Virus record (IMG/VR): IMGVR_UViG_3300037470_001030
Location: 1-28,913 of that record
Length of the DNA: 28,913 nt
Direction: 5' to 3' (one strand)
From: a virus
Lineage: Duplodnaviria > Caudoviricetes
The translations under genes were made by a program, and so were the position numbers. Shown one piece after another: positions 225-28,913 of the stretch. The notes below the pieces were generated by a model. It did no database searches. It was not told where the DNA came from and was given only the letters and a program-made list of their open reading frames with translations. Numbering within the stretch: the first letter of the stretch is position 1; every line of letters starts with the position of its first letter.

Positions 225-1313
225 TCAGGGGGCTTTCTTGTATTCAAGTTGATGGACTTTTTTCTCTAGCTGTCGTATCTCCTTAAACATCATACGTAGA
301 TCTTCACGCTCTTTAATATTTGCATCGGCAGCTTCTTCGTCCTCTTCATTGATTTCTTCCTCATCAGGTAATACAAAGTCTATTTCTCCACCTTTCTCTA
401 CAAAATCAACAAGCTTCCTAATAGAGCTGTCTAAAGCACTCACTTTGTCACCTTCTCCATTTCTATTGAGGCCAAGCTTTTCTATGGTAGTTTCAATTAT
501 TTTTTCGACTCCATTTTCTTTTTCACTCTGAGCTGCCTCATTCAATTTATCTTCGGCTTCGCCTAAACTCTTCTCAGCTAATTCATTAGCTAATTTCAAT
601 GCACGAACTTCTTGTGCCTTTTTCTTTATATCCAATACTTTCTCGGCAACCTTTAATGCCTCCATAATTATTCCGCTGGTGGTTTTTGCGATACCATAAA
701 CCGTAAGCAAACTGACTATTATGGAGCCTTTGCTGGCTCCAACGACACGAATATTTTCAGGAGCTTCATTGTGGGCCATAGCAATACCGCGGCCTATATC
801 CCACCAAATTTTACCCCAGTCCTTGAATTCTGTGAGATTTGAAAGATGCGCATCGCCGGTAAAATGAACACGAAGCAATACGGATTCACCGATTTCGCTT
901 ACTTCTTCGCTGTTAATTATTTTTGTTAGAAGGTCCCTGGTTTGCTGCGACCACTGTATTCCGCTGTCGATATCTTGAATTGATGCTTGCACATTAGAAG
1001 ATGCTGTAGCAGTATCAATCACATTTCTGAATAATGACTCCTCTAGCTTTTTAACGCCTTCTTCGCCAACATTGTCAGCTATACCAATAATAGACAATAT
1101 ATCCAATTGCCCTATAGATAGATCCACAAGAGGAATCATTTCTAAAGATTGAATTAGAGCATTTTTTTGTTCTTCAAATGGTTTCTGTTGTTGGTTTTGC
1201 TGAGCATTAAATTGGAGAACCTCATGAAGCTGCTGATATTTTTTAACGATCCCTTTATCAGAAATTTCACTCTGCACCCAGCTTGTAAGATCGTAAAGTT
1301 CTTCTACCTGCAT
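225..1313 (-). CDS. Hypothetical protein, 362 aa, helical with coiled-coil and acidic C-terminus
   Basis: Long AT-rich ORF; no family motif recognised. Confidence 0.85.
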   Translation of the reverse strand: MQVEELYDLTSWVQSEISDKGIVKKYQQLHEVLQFNAQQNQQQKPFEEQKNALIQSLEMIPLVDLSIGQLDILSIIGIADNVGEEGVKKLEESLFRNVIDTATASSNVQASIQDIDSGIQWSQQTRDLLTKIINSEEVSEIGESVLLRVHFTGDAHLSNLTEFKDWGKIWWDIGRGIAMAHNEAPENIRVVGASKGSIIVSLLTVYGIAKTTSGIIMEALKVAEKVLDIKKKAQEVRALKLANELAEKSLGEAEDKLNEAAQSEKENGVEKIIETTIEKLGLNRNGEGDKVSALDSSIRKLVDFVEKGGEIDFVLPDEEEINEEDEEAADANIKEREDLRMMFKEIRQLEKKVHQLEYKKAP

Positions 1314-1420
1314 AATTGAATTATCCTTTTGCCCTTAAAATTTTAATAAGTGGTGATGCTCTTTTTGCCGCATCCATGTATATGCCATTCCTTTCTCGCC
1401 CTGTTTTTTTAACATGCTTG

Positions 1421-2071
1421 TTATGATTTTTTTCGTTCACGATATTCGTTAATTTGCTTTGGTAACGTGTAAAGATATTCAAATAAGTAGTCCATGAATC
1501 CTACAATGTCCTTCGCATCTTCTGACGAGGTTGGTGGCTGATCAGGTTTTGGGTGGGCTGAGTCGTTCCCTAATTCCCGAACATTGTGCGCCCAGTCTTG
1601 CATTATTTTTGGAAGAACACCTTTATCGGCCAAATCATCAATTTCTTGCTTAAGATTATTGCCAATAGCATTTTGTTCGCGTAATGAAACCTGCAACGAG
1701 CTTCTGGCCATTAATGCTGCCGCATCCCAATTCTGATCTTTGAGATTCCTTTTGGCTTGCAGCCAATATCGCCCCACAGCTTCTGGCCAATGGTCTGGAT
1801 ATTTTTTCAGCTTGCCTATAGGCCAAGGAACAATTTTGTAATTGTGGTGATCCCGACTTGCGGACCAAAAAACCATAACGTAAGAAGCACAATTTCCACA
1901 TTTTAGCGTGTCGAAGTTGAGGACTTTGCTTCCATTCGGCTTTTTCTTTTCTGCGTGGTGCTCGACTTCGAAATTTCCACGTTCAGAACAGAATGGACAT
2001 TCAATTTGAAATGTCGCGAGTGTGTTTCCTCTAAAACCTGACCACTCTCCTAAGTCCCACCAACTATTCAT
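1421..2071 (-). CDS. Zn-ribbon plus DUF4145 (HEPN-like) domain protein
   Basis: CPFC...CGNC pairs; C-terminal AAALMARSSLQ...NLKQEIDDL...VRELGNDSAH (R-x-x-GN-x-x-x-H) is typical of DUF4145. Confidence 0.8.
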   Translation of the reverse strand: MNSWWDLGEWSGFRGNTLATFQIECPFCSERGNFEVEHHAEKKKPNGSKVLNFDTLKCGNCASYVMVFWSASRDHHNYKIVPWPIGKLKKYPDHWPEAVGRYWLQAKRNLKDQNWDAAALMARSSLQVSLREQNAIGNNLKQEIDDLADKGVLPKIMQDWAHNVRELGNDSAHPKPDQPPTSSEDAKDIVGFMDYLFEYLYTLPKQINEYRERKKS

Positions 2072-6818: not shown

Positions 6819-8198
6819 TTACTTGACCAGCTGCACCAGGTAACTGGTGGTGATTTTCTGATAGAAGTTGAGGCTTTCCAGCGGCGGCACCGGCGTGTAG
6901 TCGTAATCGATGTGCAGCTCGCCGGCGGCCAGTGTGGTCTCGGTGTTCTTCTCCTGGTCCACCCAGGCATTGGCGTCGACGATGTAGCCGCGCGCCTTGA
7001 GCTCGCGGAACTTGGCGTTCACGCCTTCCACGATATCGTCGATCAGCGTTTTGCTCATGGGCTTATCGATGGCCCACAGGTGCGCATCGGCAATGGTGTC
7101 CGCCAGCACGTCGCCGGTACGGGTCGCCGACTCGAAGGCGAACAGCGGATCTGCGCTACAGGTGCGCGAGCCCCAGAAGCGATAGCCTTGCTCGTTGATC
7201 AGGGCGGTGACTTCGTTGGCATTGAGATAACCGGCGATGGTGTTGGGGTTCTGCAAATCCCAGGGCACGTCCTTGCTGATACCGGTGACGCCGTTCACTG
7301 GCACGTTGGACAAAGTCTTGTGCCAGCCGGTGTCATTGTCGATCTTGGCACGCACGCCCAGGGCGCGTGCGGTGGCCCAGTGTGAGGTCTCGCTATTGCT
7401 GGTTACATCGAAGCCGAGGAAGTCCGGCCAGATCACCATGGCCCGTTTGCTGCCGAAGTTATCGCGGTACAGCACTGCCGCTTCTGCGGTTTCCGATGCA
7501 TCGGCGCTGATGTAGGTGAAGGCGCGTAGCTGGTCCGCAATGCTCACCAGCTCGGTGGCCACTGCCTGGTCGTCGAGGCCTGGCGCACCCAGAATGCGCG
7601 GCTTGATGCCCAGCTTGCTCTTGGTGGTCAGCAACGCCTGCAGGCCGGTGTGGGCGCCGGTGACGCCATCGACCGCACCGATGACGTCCGCCGGCGTGAC
7701 CAGCGTGGCGTCGATGACATCGTAAAAAATAGAGAGGATTTCTCCGGCGGCAATTGCGCCGGTCGCGATACGGGTGCCCACGCCTGTTTCCAGATTGACA
7801 CTGTAATCCACGCCTTCGGCATAGGTGGTTAATCCGTCCTGTGACTCGACCACCAGGTTGCTGATGTAGGTATCCGGAAGGGTAATGGTGTCGTCCGCCT
7901 GCACCGTGTATTCGGTAGCGGCCACGGGCGCGCTATGCGTGGCGGGATCCAGCACGTTGATCGCCACCACCATGGCGCCGATCTGGTCGAAGATGGCGTC
8001 GAACACGGCCGCCGCCGTGCCGTGGCCGGAGCCGAAGGTTTGCGCCGCCTTGCTGCGAGAACCGGCAATCAACACCGGCGTGTTCACCGGACCTTTGGGT
8101 GCAGTGATAACAACACCGATGATGCCGGTGTTGACGGTTCGTATGGGTCGTGCGCCTTCTGTTACTTCGATAACCTGGACGCCGTGATGGTAGGGCAT
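6819..8198 (-). CDS. gpFI: Tail sheath protein FI
   Basis: YHHGVQVIEV, KPRILGAPGLD, GWHKTLSNVPVNGV, GYRFWGSRTCS, DYDYTPVPPLE. Confidence 0.96.
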   Translation of the reverse strand: MPYHHGVQVIEVTEGARPIRTVNTGIIGVVITAPKGPVNTPVLIAGSRSKAAQTFGSGHGTAAAVFDAIFDQIGAMVVAINVLDPATHSAPVAATEYTVQADDTITLPDTYISNLVVESQDGLTTYAEGVDYSVNLETGVGTRIATGAIAAGEILSIFYDVIDATLVTPADVIGAVDGVTGAHTGLQALLTTKSKLGIKPRILGAPGLDDQAVATELVSIADQLRAFTYISADASETAEAAVLYRDNFGSKRAMVIWPDFLGFDVTSNSETSHWATARALGVRAKIDNDTGWHKTLSNVPVNGVTGISKDVPWDLQNPNTIAGYLNANEVTALINEQGYRFWGSRTCSADPLFAFESATRTGDVLADTIADAHLWAIDKPMSKTLIDDIVEGVNAKFRELKARGYIVDANAWVDQEKNTETTLAAGELHIDYDYTPVPPLESLNFYQKITTSYLVQLVK

Positions 8199-8240
8199 GA
8201 AATTATCCTCACTGTTTGGATATAAGCATCGATGACAGCA

Positions 8241-8298
8241 AGGTTGATATAAAAGGCGATGAAGTGAGAATGGTTTTAGGTGTAAATCCTTATTTTAC
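8241..8298 (-). promoter_or_regulatory. Late promoter pF: GTAAA-N7-TTTAC (8282-8298) with -10-like CAACCT (8241-8246)
   Basis: Same palindrome and same 35-nt spacing as at pV, pP and pO. Confidence 0.75.
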
Positions 8299-8363
8299 TC
8301 GGGAGTGAATGTTTGGGAATCATTCACGTTCGTTTTTAAAGATGTCCATTAGATAATACTGGC

Positions 8364-8849
8364 ATGAGATGTATTTACGTTTTTTCAGTCAGTGTCCTCA
8401 TCGCAGCAGTCATCAATAAACCTCTGTCAGCAGGTATCGATATCGTAAACCCGAGCGCTATTGTCATTAATGGCTTTAGTCGCCACATAGATGACAGAGC
8501 AACAACTAAGGAGTTAAACGAAAATAACTATGGCCTCGGCCTTGTTTTTGATTTACCAGATCGCGATAACTTGTATGCGACGACAGGCTTTTATAAAAAT
8601 ACATTCTACAAGGCATCGGTGTATGCGGGAATTGGATTAAAACAACGCTTTGGGCACAGACAGTATATAGAGCCAGGAATCGTTGGCGGATTGGTGACCG
8701 GGTATGTTAATAATATCGATATCATCCTACTGCCATACCTGACCTTCGGCGATACTGAAAGAGGATCTATCAGTATTCTGTACGGGCCAAAAACTAATTA
8801 CAGCATGGAATCCATTATGATCAACTTGAGTATACCACTTAAGCACTGA
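8364..8849 (+). CDS. Exported outer-membrane beta-barrel protein, PagP-like (moron)
   Basis: Signal-peptide-like N-terminus; SRH...NENNYGLG...GFYKNTF...SVYAG...GGLVTGY with alternating beta-strand pattern; AT-rich and opposite to flanking late genes. Confidence 0.65.
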   Translation: MRCIYVFSVSVLIAAVINKPLSAGIDIVNPSAIVINGFSRHIDDRATTKELNENNYGLGLVFDLPDRDNLYATTGFYKNTFYKASVYAGIGLKQRFGHRQYIEPGIVGGLVTGYVNNIDIILLPYLTFGDTERGSISILYGPKTNYSMESIMINLSIPLKH

Positions 8850-18668: not shown

Positions 18669-20420
18669 ATGAAAACCGAAATACACGAGGATCCGCGCGC
18701 CGAAGCCAGGCAACTGTACTGGCAGGGCTACCGGGTAAAACAGATCGCCGACAAGCTGGGTGAAAAACCGGCCACGGTGCACTCGTGGAAAAAACGCGAC
18801 GACTGGGATTCCACGCCGGTGATTCGCCGGGTGGAAGCATCCATCGATACGCGATTGACACAGCTGATCGCCAAGGACGACAAGACCGACGGCGAGCTGC
18901 GCGAGATCGACGTGCTGACACGGGCGCTGGCACGCTCGGCGCGGATCCGGCGTTATGACCAGGGCGGTACCGAGGCGGACCTGAATCCCCGGATAAAAAA
19001 CCGTAACCGCGGACCGAAAAAACCGCCACGCAAAAACTATCTCGATGAAGAGCAGATCGAGAAACTGGTCGAGGCCTTCGACGAGTCCCTGTTCGGTTAT
19101 CAGCGTGAGTGGAAAGACGCCGGGGAAAATCACCGCATACGGAACATTTTAAAATCGCGCCAGATTGGCGCTACCTGGTATTTTGCCCGGGAGGCGCTGA
19201 TCGATGCCATCACCACCGGTCGAAACCAGATATTCCTCTCCGCCTCGAAAGCCCAGGCCCATGTGTTCAAGCTGTATATCCTGCAGTTCGTGCGCGACAT
19301 CACCGGTGTCGAATTGAAGGGTGATCCCATTGTGTTGTTCAACGGCGCCACCCTGTATTTTCTCGGCACCAATGCGCGCACCGCCCAGTCCTATCACGGC
19401 AACGTGTACATGGATGAATATTTCTGGATTCCGCGCTTCAAGGATTTCCGCAAAGTGGCCAGTGGCATGGCCATGCACAAGAAATGGCGGCAGACCTATA
19501 TTTCCACCCCGTCCGCATTGAGCCACGAGGCCTATCCGTTCTGGTCCGGCGAGCACTACAACCGGGGCCGGCAGAAGAAAGACCATATCCAGCTCAAGGT
19601 GGACCACAAGACGCTGGCCAAGGGCCGGCTGTGTGAGGACGGCCAGTGGCGGCAGATTATCACCGTGGAAGATGCGGTCGCCGGCGGTTGTGACCTGTTC
19701 GACCTGGATCAGCTGCGCATCGAATACAGCGAAGACGAATACAACAACCTGCTGATGTGCCGGTTCATCGATGACACCGCATCGGTGTTCACCTTATCGG
19801 CCCTGCAGCGGGGCATGGTGGACGCGCTGATGCTGTGGGACGACGTGAAGCCATTCGCGCCGCGCCCCTTCGGCGACCGGGCCGTGTGGATCGGCTACGA
19901 CCCCAGCCGCACCCGGGACAACGCCGCCGTGATCGTACTGGCGCCGCCCATGGTGCCAGGCGGCAAGTTCCGGGTGATCGAAAAGATCCTCTGGCAAAAC
20001 ATGGGCTTCGATATCCAGGCGGAGAAAATCAAACAGCTGACCGAGAAGTACAACGTTCAGCACATCGGCATCGATATCACCGGCATCGGCTACGGGGTTT
20101 ATGACCACGTGCGGGCCTTCTTCCCAGCAGCGAAAAAGATCAGTTACAACCCGGAAGTGAAAACCCGCCTGGTATTGAAAGCCCAGGTGGTGATCAGCCA
20201 TGGCCGGCTGGAGTTCGACGCCGGCCACAAGGATATCGCCGCCGCGTTCATGTCGATCCGCAAAACCACCACCCCATCCGGCAAAGGCGTGACCTATGAC
20301 GCGGTGCGCACCGAAGCCGCCGGCCACGGGGACCTGGCCTGGGCCACCATGCACGCACTGGACAACGAACCGCTGCAGGGCAGCAACGCAACCAATCAAT
20401 CCTTCCTGGAGATTTATTAA
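18669..20420 (+). CDS. gpP: Terminase ATPase (large) subunit P
   Basis: N-terminal HTH (LYWQGY...HSWKKRDDWD), LKSRQIGATWYFAREA, YMDEYFW, GYDP, HGDLAWA. Confidence 0.97.
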   Translation: MKTEIHEDPRAEARQLYWQGYRVKQIADKLGEKPATVHSWKKRDDWDSTPVIRRVEASIDTRLTQLIAKDDKTDGELREIDVLTRALARSARIRRYDQGGTEADLNPRIKNRNRGPKKPPRKNYLDEEQIEKLVEAFDESLFGYQREWKDAGENHRIRNILKSRQIGATWYFAREALIDAITTGRNQIFLSASKAQAHVFKLYILQFVRDITGVELKGDPIVLFNGATLYFLGTNARTAQSYHGNVYMDEYFWIPRFKDFRKVASGMAMHKKWRQTYISTPSALSHEAYPFWSGEHYNRGRQKKDHIQLKVDHKTLAKGRLCEDGQWRQIITVEDAVAGGCDLFDLDQLRIEYSEDEYNNLLMCRFIDDTASVFTLSALQRGMVDALMLWDDVKPFAPRPFGDRAVWIGYDPSRTRDNAAVIVLAPPMVPGGKFRVIEKILWQNMGFDIQAEKIKQLTEKYNVQHIGIDITGIGYGVYDHVRAFFPAAKKISYNPEVKTRLVLKAQVVISHGRLEFDAGHKDIAAAFMSIRKTTTPSGKGVTYDAVRTEAAGHGDLAWATMHALDNEPLQGSNATNQSFLEIY

Positions 20421-21415
20421 TGTCTGATCAACACGTGGAAACACATGCACACGCCGAGGTTTTCACCTTCGGTGATCCGGTACCGGTTTTGGATGCCCGG
20501 GAAATTCTCGATTACGTTGAATCCTGGTGGAATGGCGAATGGTACGAACCACCGGTATCCGTCGATGGCCTGGCGAAAAGCTTCCGGGCAAACCCGCACC
20601 ATGGCTCGGCCATTTATGTGAAACGGAATATCCTGGTCAGCTCCTACATTCCCCACAAGCTACTACCCCGGCAGGAGTTCTCCCGCTGGGTGCTGGATTT
20701 CCTGACCTTCGGCAATGCTTACCTCGAAAAGATCGACAACCGCCTGCAGGATCCGCTGCAGCTGAAATCCTCACCGGCCAAGTTCACCCGTAAGGGCCGG
20801 GAGGGTCGCTATTTCTTCGTGCAGAACTGGGTGGACAAGCATGAATTCAAGCCCGGCTCTATATTCCATTTACTAGAGCCCGATGTAAACCAGGAAATCT
20901 ACGGCCTGCCGGAATACCTCTCCGCCCTGCAATCCGCCTGGTTAAACGAGGCGGCCACCCTGTATCGCCGCAAATACTACACCAACGGCAGCCACGCCGG
21001 CTTCGTCATGTACATGACCGACCCGGTGCACGAGGAAGCCGACATCACCAATCTGCGCAACGCGCTCAAGGAAGCCAAAGGCCCGGGCAATTTCCGCAAC
21101 CTGTTCATGTATGCGCCGAATGGCAAAAAGGACGGGATCCAGATCATCCCCATCGCCGAGGTCCAGGCGAAAGATGAATTTTTCAATATCAAGAATGTTT
21201 CACGCGATGACGTACTGGCAGCCCACCGGGTACCGCCCCAGCTGCTTGGCATCGTACCGACCAACACCGCAGGTTTCGGAGATGTGGAAAAGGCCGCCGC
21301 CGTCTTTTCACGCAACGAACTGGAGCCGCTGCAGGAACGATTGAAGGAACTCAACGACTGGCTGGGACAGGAAGTGATCCGGTTCCGGCCATACAGCGTC
21401 ATGGCCGACGCGTAA
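20420..21415 (+). CDS. gpQ: Portal protein Q
   Basis: FTFGDPVPVLD, WYEPPVS, QEIYGLPEYL, GPGNFRNLFMYAPNGKKDG, AAHRVPPQL. Confidence 0.97.
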   Translation: MSDQHVETHAHAEVFTFGDPVPVLDAREILDYVESWWNGEWYEPPVSVDGLAKSFRANPHHGSAIYVKRNILVSSYIPHKLLPRQEFSRWVLDFLTFGNAYLEKIDNRLQDPLQLKSSPAKFTRKGREGRYFFVQNWVDKHEFKPGSIFHLLEPDVNQEIYGLPEYLSALQSAWLNEAATLYRRKYYTNGSHAGFVMYMTDPVHEEADITNLRNALKEAKGPGNFRNLFMYAPNGKKDGIQIIPIAEVQAKDEFFNIKNVSRDDVLAAHRVPPQLLGIVPTNTAGFGDVEKAAAVFSRNELEPLQERLKELNDWLGQEVIRFRPYSVMADA

Positions 21416-21562: not shown

Positions 21563-22320
21563 GTGTCCAAACCGATAGTCCCCTGGATGGGCGGCAAGCG
21601 CCGTCTGGCCAAACACATCCTGCCCCTGATGGGCGAGCACACCACCTACGTGGAACCCTTCGCCGGTGGCGCCGCTATGTTCTTCATGAAGGAGCCATCG
21701 AAAGTCGAAGTAATCAATGACATCAACAGTGACCTGGTGAATCTGTACCGCGTGGTGCGGCATCACCTGGACGAGCTGGTCGGCATTTTCGCTGGGCGTT
21801 GATCAGCCGGGAGGATTTTTTGAATGCCAAGAAGATCGACCCCTCAACGCTGACCGACGTCCAGCGCGCCGCCCGGTTCTACTACCTGCAGCGCCAGGCC
21901 TTCGGCGCGAAGATCGAAGGCAGGACATTCGGCACATCACCGTCGACACCGCCGAAGTTCAACCTGCTGCGCATCGAGGAGGATCTGAGCCAGGCGCATT
22001 TGAGGTTAGCTAGAACCTACATCGAGAATCTGCCCTGGGATAAGTGTATCGAGAAATATGATCGGCCAGGGACCCTGTTTTATCTGGATCCGCCTTATTG
22101 GGCAACGGAGGGATATGATGTCGAGTTCGTCTTCGAGCATTATGAGCGGATGGCGGAGCTAGCCTGGAACATCAAAGGCCAGATGATTATTTCTGTGAAC
22201 GATATAGAAGAAATGCGCCAGGTGTTTGATGGCCTGCACATAGATACCTTTAAGCTTAAACATACCGTAGGTGGACAGGGTGGCGTTGAACGCAAAGAGC
22301 TCATAATCAATTCCAGATGA
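21563..22320 (+). pseudogene. Dam-like (D12 class) N6-adenine DNA methyltransferase split by a 1-nt deletion near 21780
   Basis: WMGGKRRLA, YVEPFAGG and EVINDIN in the first frame; FYLDPPY in the second. Adding one base at GT^CGG restores HLDELVRHFRWALISRE. SD AGGAG precedes the GTG. Confidence 0.88.
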
Positions 22321-22346
22321 TCACCTATCAACTTCATGGCGGCAAC

Positions 22347-22375
22347 AAAAAAACCCGGTATAATCCGGGTTTTCT
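22347..22375. terminator. Bidirectional intrinsic terminator
   Basis: AAAACCCGG-tataat-CCGGGTTTT between convergent methylase and ASCH genes. Confidence 0.85.
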
Positions 22376-22377
22376 TA

Positions 22378-22746
22378 TTAAATATACATAAAGGACTGCG
22401 GAGGCGCCTTTACATTATAGGCATCCAGACCCAATAGCCTTTTATATCTCCGTGCTTTTTTTACCTTAATGGCATGACCGATATCTTTTCCATTAAAATA
22501 TTGATCATAATAATCCTTTTCAATCCCGGAATATTTCTTAGTTTCATTCCACAGGTCCTCTACCTCCAGCGAAATAATACAATCGATATCGAATTCCCCA
22601 ATCACTTTTTGCACTGGACTTGATGCATATATCACTACTTTTCGGATGCTAGGGTTTTTAAAAACTGCTCTTCTAAACTCATAGAGCTTTTCACCGGATA
22701 ATATTTTTTCTGCATATTCTGGCTTAATCGATAATAAAACTTTCAT
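22378..22746 (-). CDS. ASCH/PUA-like domain protein
   Basis: LLSIKPEYAEKILSGEKLYEFRR (GxKxxExR), VVIYASSPVQKVIGEF, PPQSFMY; start overlaps the upstream gene by 23 nt. Confidence 0.9.
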   Translation of the reverse strand: MKVLLSIKPEYAEKILSGEKLYEFRRAVFKNPSIRKVVIYASSPVQKVIGEFDIDCIISLEVEDLWNETKKYSGIEKDYYDQYFNGKDIGHAIKVKKARRYKRLLGLDAYNVKAPPQSFMYI

Positions 22747-24253
22747 CGGTATTTGACGCCCTTAAAATAGATTCAAAAGATTCTTTACTTATTTCTTCAA
22801 ATCCCCGAGGCACACTATTAGTACCCGATATTACTCCTAATTCTATTAGCTTTTCCAAATTAGGTCTGCGTGGAAATGAATACGTATACAAGAAGTTTAC
22901 GACAAATGGCCTGTAGCGTCGATTAAAATTCCAATGTTTCTTTAACTCTTCATCAGTAAAGACACTTCGCTTTCTACACAATGCAATAAACTCATCCTCA
23001 TCAGATATTTGCTTGTATACGCTATCAACAACCCCGATTGTCGTAACAACTGAAGTATAGTAGGCACTCCTACCCTGTGCTGCTGTTCGATAGAAGACTA
23101 TTACATCTCCCGGCCTAAGATCCCTATTGATGGACCGAGAAATATACACTTTTTGGATAGCGTTTCTGTGAGGCTCATTCTCAATAAAATCTTTTGGGGA
23201 CTCAGTTTTTAAGATAGAATCCGGAAACAATTCCGTGTGATATGCGGGATAGATTGGGACAATAAAATATCTTCTATTACGATCAATAAAAGGGTATGTC
23301 ATCTTTGGATTATCTTGATCTGCGTCCGGGTGAAAATCCTTAACATATACCAATTCATCTCCTGTTGGCGTATGCTTAACTCCGTGCTCACAAAACCCCC
23401 AGTCCACCAGCATGCCAATAAGGCGATCGTGTTCTTCTGTTTTCCTGAAAAGAGTTACATATATCTCATCCACATGATTTATAAGAGCATTATCAAACAC
23501 GATTTTTAAGAATCTTTCGCCAAGCTTGTATCCATTTGATACAACCTTCAGTGTGCCTATTTTTATACGGTTTTTCTTTTGAAAGACTGGTTCGATATCG
23601 CTATAATTCTCATCATCTCCCTCTCGCTTAATATATAGGAAGGCCAAAATTTCATTGTCATCGGATTGACATATATAAGCCTCTTCGTCTGATTTTCTGT
23701 TGAACCATGCGTCAAATCCCTCGTAATCCGCTCTAAATGAGTCAAAGAAAGAATCGCTTACGTCTATTTCACCAAAGCATTTTTTCCTAACCGAAAGAAC
23801 CCGATAATCCGAGAGGGCCGGGTTTTCAGCAGTTACCTTTTCCAGAAAATCGTCTATAGTGAAAACAGAATTAGCAATTCCAAGCTCGGCCGCTTTAGCA
23901 TGAATCTTTCTATCTTCTGTAATTAAAAAATTTACCCTGTCGGCATAAACTTCTTTAAGCAAAGAAGTATCAATATTATCGTTATCGTTATTATCGTATT
24001 TTTCTCTTATTTTTTTTATATCATCATTTTCAGGGGCTTCGGTTTTAAGTAAATTATAGGTTTTTATCTTTACCTGAATGGTCTTAACAACATCTGGATT
24101 GCTATGCCTCTTTAGCTCTTCAACAGAAAGGGGATGTATGCATTTGTCATATTTTAGCTTATCGAGCCAATTAAACAGGGTACCTATTTCCTCATTGGCG
24201 ATCCTACTCGCCTCCCTGTGAATAAGTATGTTTGTATCAAGTAGCACCCTCAT
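22724..24253 (-). CDS. PIN-GNAT-PUA/EVE-like fusion protein, 509 aa
   Basis: PIN: LLDTNILIHRE, SVEEL, IDTSLL, LITED. GNAT: FFDSFRADY.GF..WF, KIGTLKV...GYKLGERFLK, EIYVT, WGF. C-terminal: IVPIYPAYHTELFP, KVYISRS, LRPGDVIVFYRT, VVTTIGVV. Confidence 0.85.
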   Translation of the reverse strand: MRVLLDTNILIHREASRIANEEIGTLFNWLDKLKYDKCIHPLSVEELKRHSNPDVVKTIQVKIKTYNLLKTEAPENDDIKKIREKYDNNDNDNIDTSLLKEVYADRVNFLITEDRKIHAKAAELGIANSVFTIDDFLEKVTAENPALSDYRVLSVRKKCFGEIDVSDSFFDSFRADYEGFDAWFNRKSDEEAYICQSDDNEILAFLYIKREGDDENYSDIEPVFQKKNRIKIGTLKVVSNGYKLGERFLKIVFDNALINHVDEIYVTLFRKTEEHDRLIGMLVDWGFCEHGVKHTPTGDELVYVKDFHPDADQDNPKMTYPFIDRNRRYFIVPIYPAYHTELFPDSILKTESPKDFIENEPHRNAIQKVYISRSINRDLRPGDVIVFYRTAAQGRSAYYTSVVTTIGVVDSVYKQISDEDEFIALCRKRSVFTDEELKKHWNFNRRYRPFVVNFLYTYSFPRRPNLEKLIELGVISGTNSVPRGFEEISKESFESILRASNTDESFIID

Positions 24254-24265
24254 ATACGCATCCCC

Positions 24266-24796
24266 TTAAAGAATTCCTTCAATAAAACTTCTTATTTGTT
24301 GACGATCACTTATTGGATTACCAGAAAAATATGGAACATCCAGATGATCCGCCACCTGTCTCGAATATTCTATCTCGTCGCTCTGAAATTTTTCTAACAT
24401 TTCTATATCATGACCATGCCTGTCTCGACCCACTAATCGTTCATAGATCACGTTTACATCATCAAAAAGGCAGATGATTGCTTTCGGCTTCATTTCTATA
24501 TAAGTGGATAGCGGAATTTTTGTTATTTCACCGGCGCTATTTAGCAAACAAAAGTGGCCGTCTAATATACAATTTTCATTTGGCTCTAAAAATTCATCGA
24601 GCGCAGAAATTAATATATCTTGGTTTCCAGAAATATCTTTTATATGTTTATTTTTTGGAAAATCTATTTGGGTGTATTTTTTAATCAAGTCACTGGCTGA
24701 ATAATGGTTCAAAGGCAGTTTATCTGATAGAAACTGACATAATGTTGTTTTACCAACTCCATGTATGCCGCCTATAAAAAAGATGCTTTTATTCAT
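24266..24796 (-). CDS. P-loop NMP-kinase-like protein (AAA_17 / archaeal adenylate kinase type)
   Basis: FIGGIHGVGKTT (Walker A), HYSASDLIK, CILDGHF (Walker B), IYERLVGRD lid. Confidence 0.85.
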   Translation of the reverse strand: MNKSIFFIGGIHGVGKTTLCQFLSDKLPLNHYSASDLIKKYTQIDFPKNKHIKDISGNQDILISALDEFLEPNENCILDGHFCLLNSAGEITKIPLSTYIEMKPKAIICLFDDVNVIYERLVGRDRHGHDIEMLEKFQSDEIEYSRQVADHLDVPYFSGNPISDRQQIRSFIEGIL

Positions 24797-24953
24797 ATAA
24801 ATTATTTACCTGGAAACATTGATGCGGAATTCGAACCCTTCTTAATCCATAGACTAGAGCATGTTGGTGACGAGGGTGAACCTCATGGAGAGGGGTAGGT
24901 TCTTGCTTATTAATTGGCGTAATCCGTAATTCATAGGCATTGTCCGTCAGCAC
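24789..24953 (-). CDS. Putative 54-aa leader ORF of the operon, not in the ORF track
   Basis: GGAGG 9 nt before GTG; MLTDNAYELRITPINKQEPTPLHEVHPRHQHALVYGLRRVRIPHQCFQVNNLYE*; stop overlaps the kinase start (ATGAATAA). Confidence 0.45.
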   Translation of the reverse strand: MLTDNAYELRITPINKQEPTPLHEVHPRHQHALVYGLRRVRIPHQCFQVNNLYE

Positions 24954-25177: not shown

Positions 25178-25196
25178 GTTCTCTCCCCGCCACGCC
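25178..25196 (-). other. cos: cos site (19-nt cohesive end) GGCGTGGCGGGGAGAGAAC
   Basis: Close match to P2 (GGCGAGGCGGGGAAAGCAC) and 186 (GGCGTGGCGGGGAAAGCAT) cohesive ends; followed by TGCGCGC. Confidence 0.88.
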
Positions 25197-25299: not shown

Positions 25300-25545
25300 T
25301 CATGCAGTCTGTTGCAGGTTTTTAGCCTTTCTTACATGAGGTGACATGGGCAGGTTGATATTCGGATTGGGGATAGCCGGTGGCGACAGGGAGCAGACCA
25401 CCTCGATGATCATCTTGAAGGTATGGCCGCAGTCCGGGTTGTTACAGACGCCCTTGGCTTCCCTGACCAGGGTGGATAGTTGCTGGCTGCTGCGGATCGT
25501 CGCGGGGCCTTCGCAGTGGGGGCACATCGTTTTCTGGCTGGGCAT
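25300..25545 (-). CDS. ogr: Ogr/Delta-like C4 zinc-finger late transcription activator
   Basis: CPHC...IRSS...VRE...CNNPDCGHTF...SLSPPAIPNP. Confidence 0.9.
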   Translation of the reverse strand: MPSQKTMCPHCEGPATIRSSQQLSTLVREAKGVCNNPDCGHTFKMIIEVVCSLSPPAIPNPNINLPMSPHVRKAKNLQQTA

Positions 25546-25952: not shown

Positions 25953-26117
25953 TGGGGTCACGGATTTTCAGCAACCCCGGTATTTCAGGGGGTCTCGTTT
26001 ATGCGAGAAAAAACCCCTGGGACCGTTTTGGGACTGAGAACGTCCATTTTCCACCATTTTCAAATTTTTAACTTATTGTTTTTATTGATAATAATTTTTT
26101 AAAAGGCCAATGTTGGG

Positions 26118-26143
26118 GGGTTCGAATCCCTCCTTCTCCGCCA
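26118..26143 (+). other. att: Prophage att site: 3' end of a tRNA-Ser-like gene
   Basis: GGGTTCGAATCCCTCCTTCTCCGCCA (T-loop, 3' acceptor strand, discriminator G, CCA) with no 5' tRNA half upstream. IHF-like TAACTTATTGTTT near 26069. Confidence 0.85.
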
Positions 26144-26198
26144 AATAAAAAAGGCCCCCTTTCGCGAGGGGGCCTTTTTTATTTGGCGGAGAAGGAGG
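26129..26198. repeat. 32-bp perfect inverted repeat including the tRNA 3' end; terminator-like core
   Basis: CCTCCTTCTCCGCCAAATAAAAAAGGCCCCCT, loop ttcgcg, then the exact reverse complement. Confidence 0.92.
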
Positions 26199-26512
26199 CT
26201 CTGGTTCGAACCCTTTTCGGAAAAAATGCAGGATTGCATTTTTTGACGCGATCGCCTTTCATCGCGCCCCGCAGGGGTGAGGCCCATGGATGGGCCGAAT
26301 CAATCCCTGGTTCGGATCACTGCCTCACACTAATCGGATGTAACGCGCCAAATGAATCGCGACTGCGTGACACATGGTTTGCGACTCTAAAATAGCGTTT
26401 TTTAGCTATTATTTGACCATTATTATGCCGTTTAAACCCTGTTTACAGGTTGATAGCGGGGCGCCCATCCCACATAATCCGGGGACAATCCACACAACAC
26501 TATATAGTGAAT

Positions 26513-26755
26513 ATGGAGATTCTAGGTGGGACTATTGGGCTTGTGGTCTTCGTGTTTTTGGCTATTGTAGCTATTCTCTGGTTCCTTATGCCGTTCGCGG
26601 TGTTTGGTATCAAGGACCAACTCAAGGAATTTTCAGCACGAATTGACAAGGCGCTCGTTGAGCAGAAAGCCACGAATAGTCATCTGGCTATGATCGCGAA
26701 CGATATCAGGGCCAGCTTGGATCAGCCTGCCAGCAACGATGACCAGGTGGCTTAG
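26513..26755 (+). CDS. Small single-pass membrane protein, 80 aa
   Basis: MEILGGTIGLVVFVFLAIVAILWFLMPFAVFGIK followed by a short helical tail. Confidence 0.65.
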   Translation: MEILGGTIGLVVFVFLAIVAILWFLMPFAVFGIKDQLKEFSARIDKALVEQKATNSHLAMIANDIRASLDQPASNDDQVA

Positions 26756-26956
26756 CGGAGTAACCGGGGTCGGAACACATTTTTTCCTAATATTAGTGGA
26801 AACTGTGTTCCGACCCTGCTTATCCCATTTGCCACCCAATAAGATATTTCTTATCTCTTGATCTGTGTGAGCATTTTTAGACACATCTACGGTAGCGCAA
26901 CCAGACAATACATAAAACAATAAAGTCAAGAACAGAGGCTTGGTAATTACATTCAT
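26633..26956 (-). pseudogene. Lipoprotein, probably truncated at the REP-like element
   Basis: Lipobox LSGC after a hydrophobic leader; the frame then runs through the palindrome and antisense into the neighbouring gene. Confidence 0.5.
26767..26816. repeat. REP-like 50-nt palindrome, copy 2
   Basis: GGGTCGGAACACA pairs with TGTGTTCCGACCC (13 bp); AATATTAG at 26789-26796. Confidence 0.75.
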
Positions 26957-27113
26957 GTTCGATTGATTATAATTAAAGATTTATGGTGAGTTTAAATTTT
27001 TAAGTTACCAGAGACTGTAAGAAACTCCGCGCCGTATTTTTTACACAGTTCCTTTTGCGCCTCGAATATTTTTGATTATTTATTGCCCACGATCTCTCTA
27101 TATCAACGTGAGC

Positions 27114-27386
27114 TCAGTCATCGGAATCACATTCTGTACGCAACCACGCCTCCTCGACCGCAGACCTTTCGGCCTCCCAGTCATCTGGCAAATCCATCAA
27201 CTCCTTTAAGGCAGGATGTTTCTGAAATAGATAACCGACACCTACAACCCTATATGATGACGCATCATCATCGTGATCTTCGCCGCAAAGAAAACACCAA
27301 TCTCCATCGCACCTACTCACCAAAAGCACTGGCCTCGTGCCTTCGTAAATATGCGTACGAACATAAGCTTTCTGATGAAGATCCAT
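27114..27386 (-). CDS. Putative immunity protein (Imm33/DUF2185-like)
   Basis: RPVLLVSRCDGDWCFLCG...HPALKELMDLPDDWEAER; lies within an RHS-derived array. Start uncertain (27386 or 27431). Confidence 0.55.
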   Translation of the reverse strand: MDLHQKAYVRTHIYEGTRPVLLVSRCDGDWCFLCGEDHDDDASSYRVVGVGYLFQKHPALKELMDLPDDWEAERSAVEEAWLRTECDSDD

Positions 27387-27431
27387 TATTTGAATCATAA
27401 TAGGCTGGCTGCATTCTTTGAATAAAATCAT

Positions 27432-27824
27432 TCAAGCATAAACATCAATCACGACATCCAAATCAAATATTGCAAGCCTTTTTATCACATCTGAGCTAAT
27501 AGCCGCCCCACCTTGACCGTTATCTGTATATAAATAACAACATATATCTGACTTAACAATAACCTTAGAAGCAAGGTCATGATACTCAGATTTTCTCTGC
27601 TCAAGCCAGTCTAGCAATTCAATAATATGCATATCGATACTATCAGATACATCACAGGATGAATTTTTTCCCCACATAGTTTCAGAATAATATTTTTTTT
27701 CGCCACATCCAATGCTATTCCCCTCTGAATATCCAAAGTCTTCTTTGCAATCGAATTTCGCAGCTACTCCATCTAGACCTAAGCCATGGGTATATATCCT
27801 CAGACTAACTTTAATTTCTAACAT
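27432..27824 (-). CDS. DUF4279-like putative immunity protein
   Basis: VSLRIY...W...HIIELLDWL...ISSDVIKRLAIFDLDVVIDVY pattern; directly follows a toxin-tail remnant. Confidence 0.6.
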   Translation of the reverse strand: MLEIKVSLRIYTHGLGLDGVAAKFDCKEDFGYSEGNSIGCGEKKYYSETMWGKNSSCDVSDSIDMHIIELLDWLEQRKSEYHDLASKVIVKSDICCYLYTDNGQGGAAISSDVIKRLAIFDLDVVIDVYA

Positions 27825-27834
27825 TGTTCACCTA

Positions 27835-27948
27835 TTAGTCGAATATATTTCCAATCGAATCTCCTAGCCTATTTCCTGGGGCTTTAGGGAATATTTCTCC
27901 ACACGTTGTACAGACTTCGACATCCGGATTTTTTAAAGCTTCCCTGCC
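27835..27948 (-). pseudogene. Orphan toxin C-terminal remnant containing CxxC
   Basis: Start-less frame GREALKNPDVEVCTTCGEIFPKAPGNRLGDSIGNIFD* ending 10 nt before the DUF4279-like gene. Confidence 0.4.
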
Positions 27949-28097
27949 TCAGGCGTAAGGCCTGGGGGCATTAACTTGTGAAATTGTTTCTCATTCATCT
28001 TTGCCACATAGCGAACATAGTATCTGATTCCTTCGATCCCTTTTAAGCACAAACAGCGGCTTGTAGACTCGGAGGATATTCCGAGAGAGACATAACG

Positions 28098-28120
28098 AAC
28101 AAACCCGCCGAAGCGGGCTT
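28098..28120 (-). terminator. Intrinsic terminator after the CPCC gene
   Basis: Minus strand CCCGC-TTCG-GCGGG-TTTGTT. Confidence 0.7.
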
Positions 28121-28123
28121 ATC

Positions 28124-28366
28124 CTATGGCAACTCACTTTCTAAAGGATTCCTGACATTTTTGACAAACTCCTGCTTTATCGCCCCGTATTTAGCAAAAT
28201 TTTCTTTGGCTTCATTCAGGCTTATTCCATTGGCACCGCTATCGTAATCAGGCTCTTCGTTCTGAATACTGTCATCTTCCCAGTAGCATACGGGGCAGAT
28301 TTCATAAGTGCCGCATGGCTCTTCATCAAAAGTTAAATACCCACAGCACGGACAAGGATAGCTCAT
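28124..28366 (-). CDS. Cysteine-rich CPCC family protein (putative immunity)
   Basis: YPCPCCGYLTF...YEICPVCYWEDD...GANGISLNEAKENF. Confidence 0.88.
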   Translation of the reverse strand: MSYPCPCCGYLTFDEEPCGTYEICPVCYWEDDSIQNEEPDYDSGANGISLNEAKENFAKYGAIKQEFVKNVRNPLESELP

Positions 28367-28377
28367 CAAATTCATCC

Positions 28378-28686
28378 CTACTGCTTGTTCCAATAATCCA
28401 TACCATCCTTGGGCCTGAACATGGTACGCGGCGCACCATTCGCGTCCTTTACGCCGAAGGTATTAGTTTTTGAATCGTATAAGTTGGATGCCTCATCCTG
28501 TTCGATTTCTTCCCCGAAAGGCTTGTAATGCTTGCGCCACTTGATGTTGCCCGCTTCATCCATGGCGGCAATGGGCGAACCGCTGGCATCAGGGATGTAA
28601 TAAGTGGTCTCAGTGGTTTCGCTAACACCCGGCTGGGCCCATAGCAATAAAAGGCAGGAGAACAATAATCTGGCGAGGTTTTTCAT
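28378..28686 (-). pseudogene. Internally deleted secreted RHS toxin (signal peptide, RHS core start, toxin tail)
   Basis: Sec-type signal, then YYIPDASGSPIAAMDEAGNIKWRKHYKPFGE joined directly to YDSKTNTFGVKDANGAPRTMFRPKDGMDYWNKQ; the DPxG core end is absent. Confidence 0.7.
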
Positions 28687-28913
28687 TTCTTTAATCCCTT
28701 AAGATCTGTTGACCGTTAAACCTGGCCGAATGTAAAAGATTCGACACGTCATGTCATGGGTTTTAGCGGATTATCCACAAATTCAGGAATCAACACCCCC
28801 TCCAATCTATTAACCCGGTGGCAAACAACATCTGTTAAGCGGCATAACTAATTTTCTCATGTTCAAAATAACTCGCGACACGTTTCGGTTTTCTTTGCAG
28901 CATACGCATATGC

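Follow-up and report, generated by a model that had tools for sequence, protein, structure and literature searches.

A PIN-GNAT-ASCH/EVE and ASCH cassette in the portal-cos interval of a P2-like phage is a further copy of a catalogued family

The DNA analysed here is a stretch of 28,913 nucleotides from a virus of the Caudoviricetes (IMG/VR record IMGVR_UViG_3300037470_001030), called the window below. It is a P2-like phage record, in which scaffold, capsid, P2-type terminase, portal and Ogr genes were identified by Pfam. Between its portal gene and a cos-like site lies a cassette of three intact open reading frames (ORFs) on the minus strand, followed by a hairpin:

24266..24796, minus strand: P-loop protein resembling nucleoside monophosphate (NMP) kinases (AAA_17; archaeal adenylate kinase type), accessory, 176 aa; by Pfam and the family profile
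22724..24253, minus strand: PIN-GNAT-ASCH/EVE-like fusion, 509 aa (PDC-M11A; homologue of GevT with an added PIN domain), likely toxin; by PADLOC and fold matches
22378..22746, minus strand: GKER-type ASCH protein, 122 aa (PDC-M11B; homologue of GevA), likely deacetylase antitoxin as judged from sequence
22343..22380 (within 22335-22380), minus strand: intrinsic-terminator-like hairpin between the operon and a convergent Dam-like gene

The kinase and fusion genes are separated by 12 nt, and the fusion and ASCH genes overlap by 23 nt. The GC content of the cassette is 0.34-0.37, and that of its third codon positions (GC3) is 0.27-0.34, while the capsid, large terminase and portal genes have 0.56-0.60 and 0.71-0.78. 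The hairpin has a folding energy of -20 kcal/mol, with a z score of -5.5 on the minus strand (0 of 200 shuffles were as stable) and -2.7 on the plus strand; a consensus terminator scanner did not list it. The initial annotation of this DNA had described an AT-rich, tightly packed operon with its own terminator in the cargo slot beside gpQ and cos, and coordinates, composition and hairpin agree with that description, the cassette lying on the portal side of the cos-like site, between 20420-21415 and 25178-25196. It had also placed the operon opposite to the late genes. This is correct for the portal and large terminase genes; the scaffold, capsid, small terminase and tail genes lie on the same strand as the operon.

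Family membership and core

Is the cassette new? The fusion is PDC-M11A of PADLOC (E 2.9e-224, residues 1-508 on positions 1-500 of a 501-position model), and the ASCH partner is PDC-M11B (E 2.4e-49). The PADLOC run proposed with the initial annotation thus matched both core genes end to end, adjacent and in the usual order. In the main text of the Payne preprint M11 is unnamed and the 145 candidates are called untested; in another preprint PDC-M11 appears as a presence listing. The arrangement itself was described earlier. Bell 2020 (PMC7641849) reports a (PIN)-GNAT-EVE protein with ASCH "and often" an AAA_17 protein, uncharacterised in that account, with the PIN-bearing form beside type I restriction-modification (RM) genes and the PIN-less form in prophages. 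The PIN_15/PIN_17 operons of Matelska 2017 (PMC5499597) have the same gene arrangement. The domain order, the ASCH partner and the optional AAA_17 gene of these operons are as in the present cassette, which differs from the account of Bell 2020 in that the PIN-bearing form is here in a phage, the "EVE" domain is closest to ZmASCH, and the AAA_17 protein resembles adenylate kinase instead of an AAA+ ATPase. The arrangement with its kinase gene is therefore already in print, the novelty that the initial annotation had left as a possibility falls away, and the cassette is a complete further copy of a catalogued family.

Relatives carrying names were found by tblastn of 50,697 phage records, which gave 16 matches, the first annotated as GevT toxin and GevA antitoxin. 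This pair stands directly after cI in Escherichia phage PhiR47_2 (PV340567.1), and a second pair lies in the gpA-gpQ interval of SopEPhi, an interval described as the main P2 defence hotspot (PMC13586616). GevT is 40% identical to the fusion over 364 aa and GevA 52% to the ASCH partner over 124 aa. They share with the present cassette the 23-nt overlap and a phage accessory slot, but GevT lacks the PIN domain and no kinase is annotated beside the pair. Our literature search turned up neither a paper with the names GevT/GevA nor an experimental test of a PIN-GNAT-EVE operon. PMC13190303 gives Brenes and Laub 2025 as the source of the PhiR panel, so GevTA was probably tested in that work.

The family is widespread. 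It has 2028 representatives at 50% identity (E <= 0.001) and is present in 9 of 401 sampled genomes of one phylum; 275 of 5426 E. coli genomes hold near-identical gevTA copies. For comparison of gene content, 17 genome, 51 viral, 80 metagenome and 9 sampled-genome loci were fetched, and their genes were mapped with profiles built from them. The metagenome loci are the best 80 of 555, and the 51 viral loci came from a scan with an alignment query, the same contigs having given no relative with the single protein. The loci were not dereplicated (L021 repeats L001). Alignments were made of the fusion (110 rows), the partner ASCH (101 rows) and the kinase (44 non-redundant rows).

Which parts form the core? 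The counts of pairing exclude 11 viral loci with partial cover of GNAT-EVE and 4 partial loci of the genome collections. ASCH stands beside every full-length scorable fusion, in 78 of 78 metagenome loci (2 of the 80 were too short), 39 of 39 viral loci and 12 of 12 genome loci; among the 11 partial-cover viral loci it was seen in 1 of 9 that could be scored. The kinase occurs at 24 of the 80 metagenome loci and at 20 of the 40 full-length viral loci; of these 40, 4 have PIN and 36 are without it. With ASCH pairing near-obligate and both PIN and kinase optional, the core is GNAT-EVE plus ASCH, and the present locus is the full version with PIN and kinase. The kinase, which the initial annotation had counted as a member of the set, is therefore accessory, and the PIN-bearing form is uncommon in the phage cargo slot. 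One-chain fusions exist in both orders, as PIN-GNAT-EVE-ASCH (P0124) and as ASCH-PIN-GNAT-EVE (P0140, P0148, P0167).

Some variant loci were also observed. L022 and L023:2952-3929 also belong to the one-chain fusions, which include an ASCH-kinase fusion. At L065, L066, L067 and L070 GNAT and EVE are two overlapping ORFs and the kinase gene is on the opposite strand. In an unrelated phage (L031:5397-7903) the three-gene cassette lies between the large terminase and head-tail adaptor/portal genes. What is more, a protein family whose members have about 310-355 aa and a C-terminal helix that is hydrophobic stands before, inside or after the operon at 16 loci (L002, L003, L006 at 7592-8521, L010, L012, L013, L099, L102, L105, L116, L129, L130, L131 and L144, with fragments in L032 and L141). 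No name for it was returned by Pfam, PADLOC, NCBIfam, PDB or Atlas; it is a possible membrane effector.

Domains and conserved residues

A PDB search with the single fusion sequence gave chance matches only. An AlphaFold model of the fusion (predicted local distance difference test score 92.8, predicted template modelling score 0.85) gave, in a fold search, the domain order PIN, GNAT, PUA-like. Residues 1-135 are VapC-like (Z 12.9), and D6, E46, D95 and D114, which, as in VapC, would be metal ligands, are all present, as the initial annotation had noted. It had further cast PIN as the effector that cleaves RNA; in the family PIN is not the core effector. The domain is missing from 33 of 110 rows, its four acidic residues are intact in 59 of 76 and all lost in 9 of 76, and just 3 of its columns are conserved at 90% or more, compared with 17 in GNAT. 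Twelve fusions are PIN-dead, with three or four of the acidic ligands lost (P0126, P0169, P0170, P0177, P0180, P0182, P0209, P0234, P0244, P0249, P0260 and P0265), and these keep most of 10 GNAT marker residues. PIN as an obligate effector was rejected on these lost tetrads and on the common PIN-less rows and loci.

The GNAT fold covers about residues 150-309 (Z 13.6-14.9), and its closest matches are the N-terminal (alpha-amino) acetyltransferases Naa60, Ard1 and RimI. By profile it matches NAA50 with E 0.017, and PF00583 is matched by 2 of 49 relatives. Conserved at 90% or more are a loop, G241-x-K/R-L-G245-E246, and six further residues, K209, E211, K231, K236, Y265 and T267. As read from the sequences, the loop could as well belong to a rebuilt active site as to a conserved surface for binding.

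The partner ASCH carries the motif residues G18-K20-E23-R25 that the initial annotation had pointed out; it matches PF04266 with E 7.5e-5 and ZmASCH (PDB 5GUQ), its closest solved relative, with E 9e-12, and it has no helix-turn-helix (HTH) domain within its 122 aa. K20, E23 and R25 are present in 101 of 101 rows, Y40 (ZmASCH Y47) in 101 and S118 (ZmASCH S128) in 98. The YqfB type (GK[T/S]R), brought up in the initial annotation through the E. coli ASCH protein YqfB, was rejected, a glutamate standing at the threonine/serine position in 101 of 101 rows. By its sequence the partner is of the GKER (ZmASCH) type, like ZmASCH and other GKER-type deacetylases in the octapeptide G-K-E-R, in Y40 and in S118; ZmASCH K53 aligns to Q46.

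The fused domain is related to the same protein. Pfam EVE gave no match for the fusion, and PF01878 was matched by 5 of 49 relatives at E <= 0.001. Residues 326-504 match ZmASCH with Z 14.0 and a root mean square deviation of 3.0 over 143 of 143 residues, and ZmASCH is the sole PUA-type row among the top 50 fold matches of the model. The profiles of the fused domain and the partner ASCH also align (E 3.8e-5, probability 71%). From this alignment and the shared likeness to ZmASCH, the operon holds two paralogous ASCH-like domains. The fused copy keeps K368 in 109 and Y388 in 106 of 110 rows. Its Lys-Tyr spacing (K368-Y388) is 20 in 73 of 106 rows, as is that of the partner (K20-Y40) in 83 of 101, and in the register that we infer no acidic residue stands at the position matching E23 in any of the 110 rows. 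The fused domain would thus be an ASCH paralogue which has kept the lysine and lost the catalytic glutamate, a putative "dead reader". A point against this assignment is that hhalign sets the ASCH lysine motif against an insertion and not against K368; because it chose this other register, ours is drawn from spacing, strand position and conservation.

The kinase-like protein matches Pfam AAA_17 (PF13207, E 4e-18), and its Walker motifs are intact as previously annotated, with G10-G15-K16 and D79-G-H81 present. G10, G15, K16, D79, H81 and R124 are found in 44 of 44 rows. Most of the family profile can be aligned with the archaeal-type adenylate kinases 1nks, 1ki9 and 6pjw and with the designed 9cm0. 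At 27 bits against the AdkA cut-off of 155 (PRK04040), the protein resembles that family but is not a member. Its sequence suggests that it is better named NMP-kinase-like than AAA+ ATPase. Its best PADLOC match, with E 0.005, is not meaningful.

Proposed mechanism and rival explanations

What might the cassette do? Judging by its genes and relatives, it probably has a role in defence or as a toxin-antitoxin system. This reading, which the initial annotation had favoured, fits the PDC-M11 match, the homology to GevT/GevA and the genes beside relatives. At 21 of 37 long metagenome loci a PADLOC match at E <= 1e-30 lies within the two nearest ORFs on each side, and 14 of the 21 match established systems (type I and IIG RM, Druantia, Hma, Dnd). 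The suggested look at homologue neighbourhoods has thus found defence genes; as a measure of enrichment the count is weakened by near-duplicates and by the lack of a background control. The toxin and antitoxin names of GevT and GevA, for their part, are GenBank labels only.

The scheme that we prefer, though we give somewhat less than an even chance to the whole of its chemistry, is an enzymatic toxin-antitoxin defence with an RNA-acetylating writer, a dead-ASCH reader and an ASCH eraser. We infer its substrate, what sets it off and in which direction each of its activities runs. The GNAT domain would acetylate an RNA base, most likely cytidine at N4, the fused glutamate-less domain would hold the target, and removal of the acetyl mark would fall to the separate ASCH protein. 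In a quiet lysogen the eraser would keep pace with the writer. Infection by another phage, through host shut-off or a phage trigger, would upset this balance, so that marked RNA would block translation and the cell would cease phage production. The PIN domain would add an RNase activity against the bound or marked RNA, and the nucleotides so released would be re-phosphorylated by the adenylate-kinase-like protein. DarTG and CmdTAC are nucleic-acid-modifying toxins in anti-phage defence, and DarG is an enzyme which erases the mark; they use ADP-ribosylation and folds unrelated to the present cassette, so the likeness is an analogy only. The writer, reader and eraser of the initial annotation are partly retained here. 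The intact ASCH dyad and the glutamate-less paralogue fit them, while the GNAT domain lacks motif A and the chemistry is predicted only. A recent preprint (10.64898/2026.02.27.708502) gives the eraser a possible substrate, N4-acetylcytidine (ac4C): all 19 ASCH proteins tested there, ZmASCH included, removed tRNA ac4C in vitro, the Lys/Glu dyad was essential in TthASCH, and several GKER proteins hydrolysed free ac4C.

Several points weigh against RNA acetylation by this cassette. In the same preprint ZmASCH was inactive on free ac4C, and its expression in E. coli left tRNA ac4C undiminished; Kim 2017 describes ZmASCH as a weak single-strand RNase. On the side of the writer, the canonical motif A (R/Q-x-x-G-x-G/A) is found in 0 of 110 rows, the loop being two residues shorter than in NAA50 with K/R at the middle glycine. 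The intact-looking GNAT core of the initial annotation therefore stands for the fold (Z up to 14.9) and not for this motif. The closest solved GNATs, 8-18% identical, are N-acetyltransferases of proteins and small molecules, and they give no word on the substrate. Matelska 2017 takes the GNAT domain as degenerate and probably without acetyltransferase activity.

One rival, which we regard as unlikely, follows from that view: the GNAT domain would be a non-catalytic sensor or scaffold that binds a phage protein, RNA or nucleotide, toxicity would come from PIN or from RNA binding, and ASCH would be a binding or regulatory partner. The missing motif A and a PIN tetrad intact here and in most PIN-bearing rows speak for it. 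But GevT, labelled a toxin, has no PIN, nor have most full-length viral loci, and the replacement loop and the six further GNAT residues are highly conserved. The eraser dyad, moreover, is kept in all partners, which argues that a mark exists to erase. Could the mark then be on DNA? Bell 2020 ascribes a proposal of DNA-base acylation to Iyer 2013. The GNAT domain would modify DNA for self-marking, anti-restriction or poisoning of phage DNA, the fused domain would read the mark and ASCH would reverse it. The type I RM linkage points this way (12 of 80 metagenome loci carry hsdM or hsdS, often interspersed among the cassette genes), and so do the ASCH-HsdS and HTH-ASCH fusions of Bell 2020; both linkage and ASCH-HsdS fusion count against RNA as the target. 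A Dam-like gene is also adjacent here. Yet hsdM or hsdS occurs in 0 of 51 viral loci, the PIN domain has the fold of a VapC-type RNase, the closest solved ASCH acts on RNA, and the Dam-like gene is split, phage-like in GC3 and unmatched beside any fetched relative. DNA as the target is thus rather improbable in our estimate.

Two further rivals keep an active GNAT domain and change its substrate. In a scenario discussed in Bell 2020 its target would be the amino group of aminoacyl-tRNA, as it is for known GNAT toxins; the tRNA would be chosen by the fused domain and the product broken down by PIN, with ASCH as a regulator of expression. The solved folds nearest to the GNAT domain, Naa60, Ard1 and RimI, favour such a substrate; the scenario leaves the invariant catalytic dyad of ASCH unexplained. 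GNAT toxins that acetylate tRNA are known to pair with DNA-binding antitoxins, while the present partner ASCH has no HTH domain, and we hold this scenario to be quite improbable. Least probable to us, and very much so, is nucleotide signalling, in which the GNAT domain would acylate a free nucleotide, the kinase would phosphorylate it further, ASCH would destroy it, and swappable effectors, PIN or a membrane protein, would respond. An NMP-kinase-like protein fully conserved where present, the unnamed membrane-anchored family at its three operon positions and 16 loci, and the free-ac4C activity of several GKER proteins in the preprint agree with it. Against it, the minimal two-gene form, labelled toxin-antitoxin, has neither kinase, PIN nor membrane protein; kinase and membrane-anchored protein occur together in only 2 loci; and ZmASCH, which is closest among solved relatives, does not act on free ac4C.

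If RNA acetylation by the cassette is true, the GNAT domain would be an ac4C writer with a motif unrelated to the known ones, and the pair a toxin-antitoxin system using base acetylation. Competing predictions of DNA acetylation, aminoacyl-tRNA acetylation and a dead GNAT have stood since 2013; the glutamate-less fused copy set against the dyad-bearing partner, together with the 2026 report of ac4C erasers, now makes the chemistry testable. A bolder version, which we offer as a long shot, is reversible base-acetylation immunity, in which a GNAT with a rebuilt loop would write ac4C, a duplicated ASCH would have become dead reader and live eraser, and the versions with kinase would make an acetylated nucleotide signal for swappable effectors (the PIN RNase or the membrane protein).

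Flanking features and other cargo

The cassette is bordered by the following features:

20420..21415, plus strand: P2-like portal gene (gpQ), which bounds the cargo slot on the left; PF04860, E 2e-16
21563..22320, plus strand: Dam-like (D12) adenine methyltransferase gene in two frames split near 21790, phage backbone; PF02086 in both halves
24789..24953, minus strand: upstream region with a 54-aa GTG ORF (24797-24953), probably not a gene
25178..25196, minus strand: P2-type cos-like site, a 19-mer; single match to a cos motif
25300..25545, minus strand: Ogr/Delta late activator gene, beyond cos; PF04606, E 6e-16

The Dam-like gene resembles phage genes in GC3 (0.76 and 0.66 for its halves). 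It was rejected as a cognate methyltransferase, being split, phage-like in GC3 and without a match in the fetched loci; from the sequence, the split at about 21790 would be a pseudogene or an assembly error. The 54-aa ORF found no support as a fourth gene, since neither blastn nor tblastn matched it in the fetched loci, and a scanner listed no sigma-70 consensus site within 24789-24953. The cos-like 19-mer was assigned by its match to a cos motif, and its chance figure is optimistic because the degenerate positions of the motif were picked after the window had been viewed. On the far side of cos are Ogr and an att-like tRNA end, with no ORF of gpA size there, and the early region may be absent from the contig.

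Other parts of the window deserve a short description. At 26100-26200 a tRNA-like 3' end, in which ARAGORN found no whole tRNA, precedes a two-way terminator enclosed in a long and nearly perfect palindrome; this is probably the right attachment site. Past it, 26600-28700 holds DUF4279, Imm33-like and RHS-fragment genes and is likely host immunity-array DNA. A second low-GC cargo block lies at the opposite end of the window (225-2071), with a 216-aa DUF4145 protein that matches PADLOC PD-T7-4 (E 6e-13) and a 362-aa protein with a weak SAVED match (E 0.005). One more low-GC gene, at 8364-8849, stands on the opposite strand among the tail genes and matches phrog_3600 (E 3e-13).

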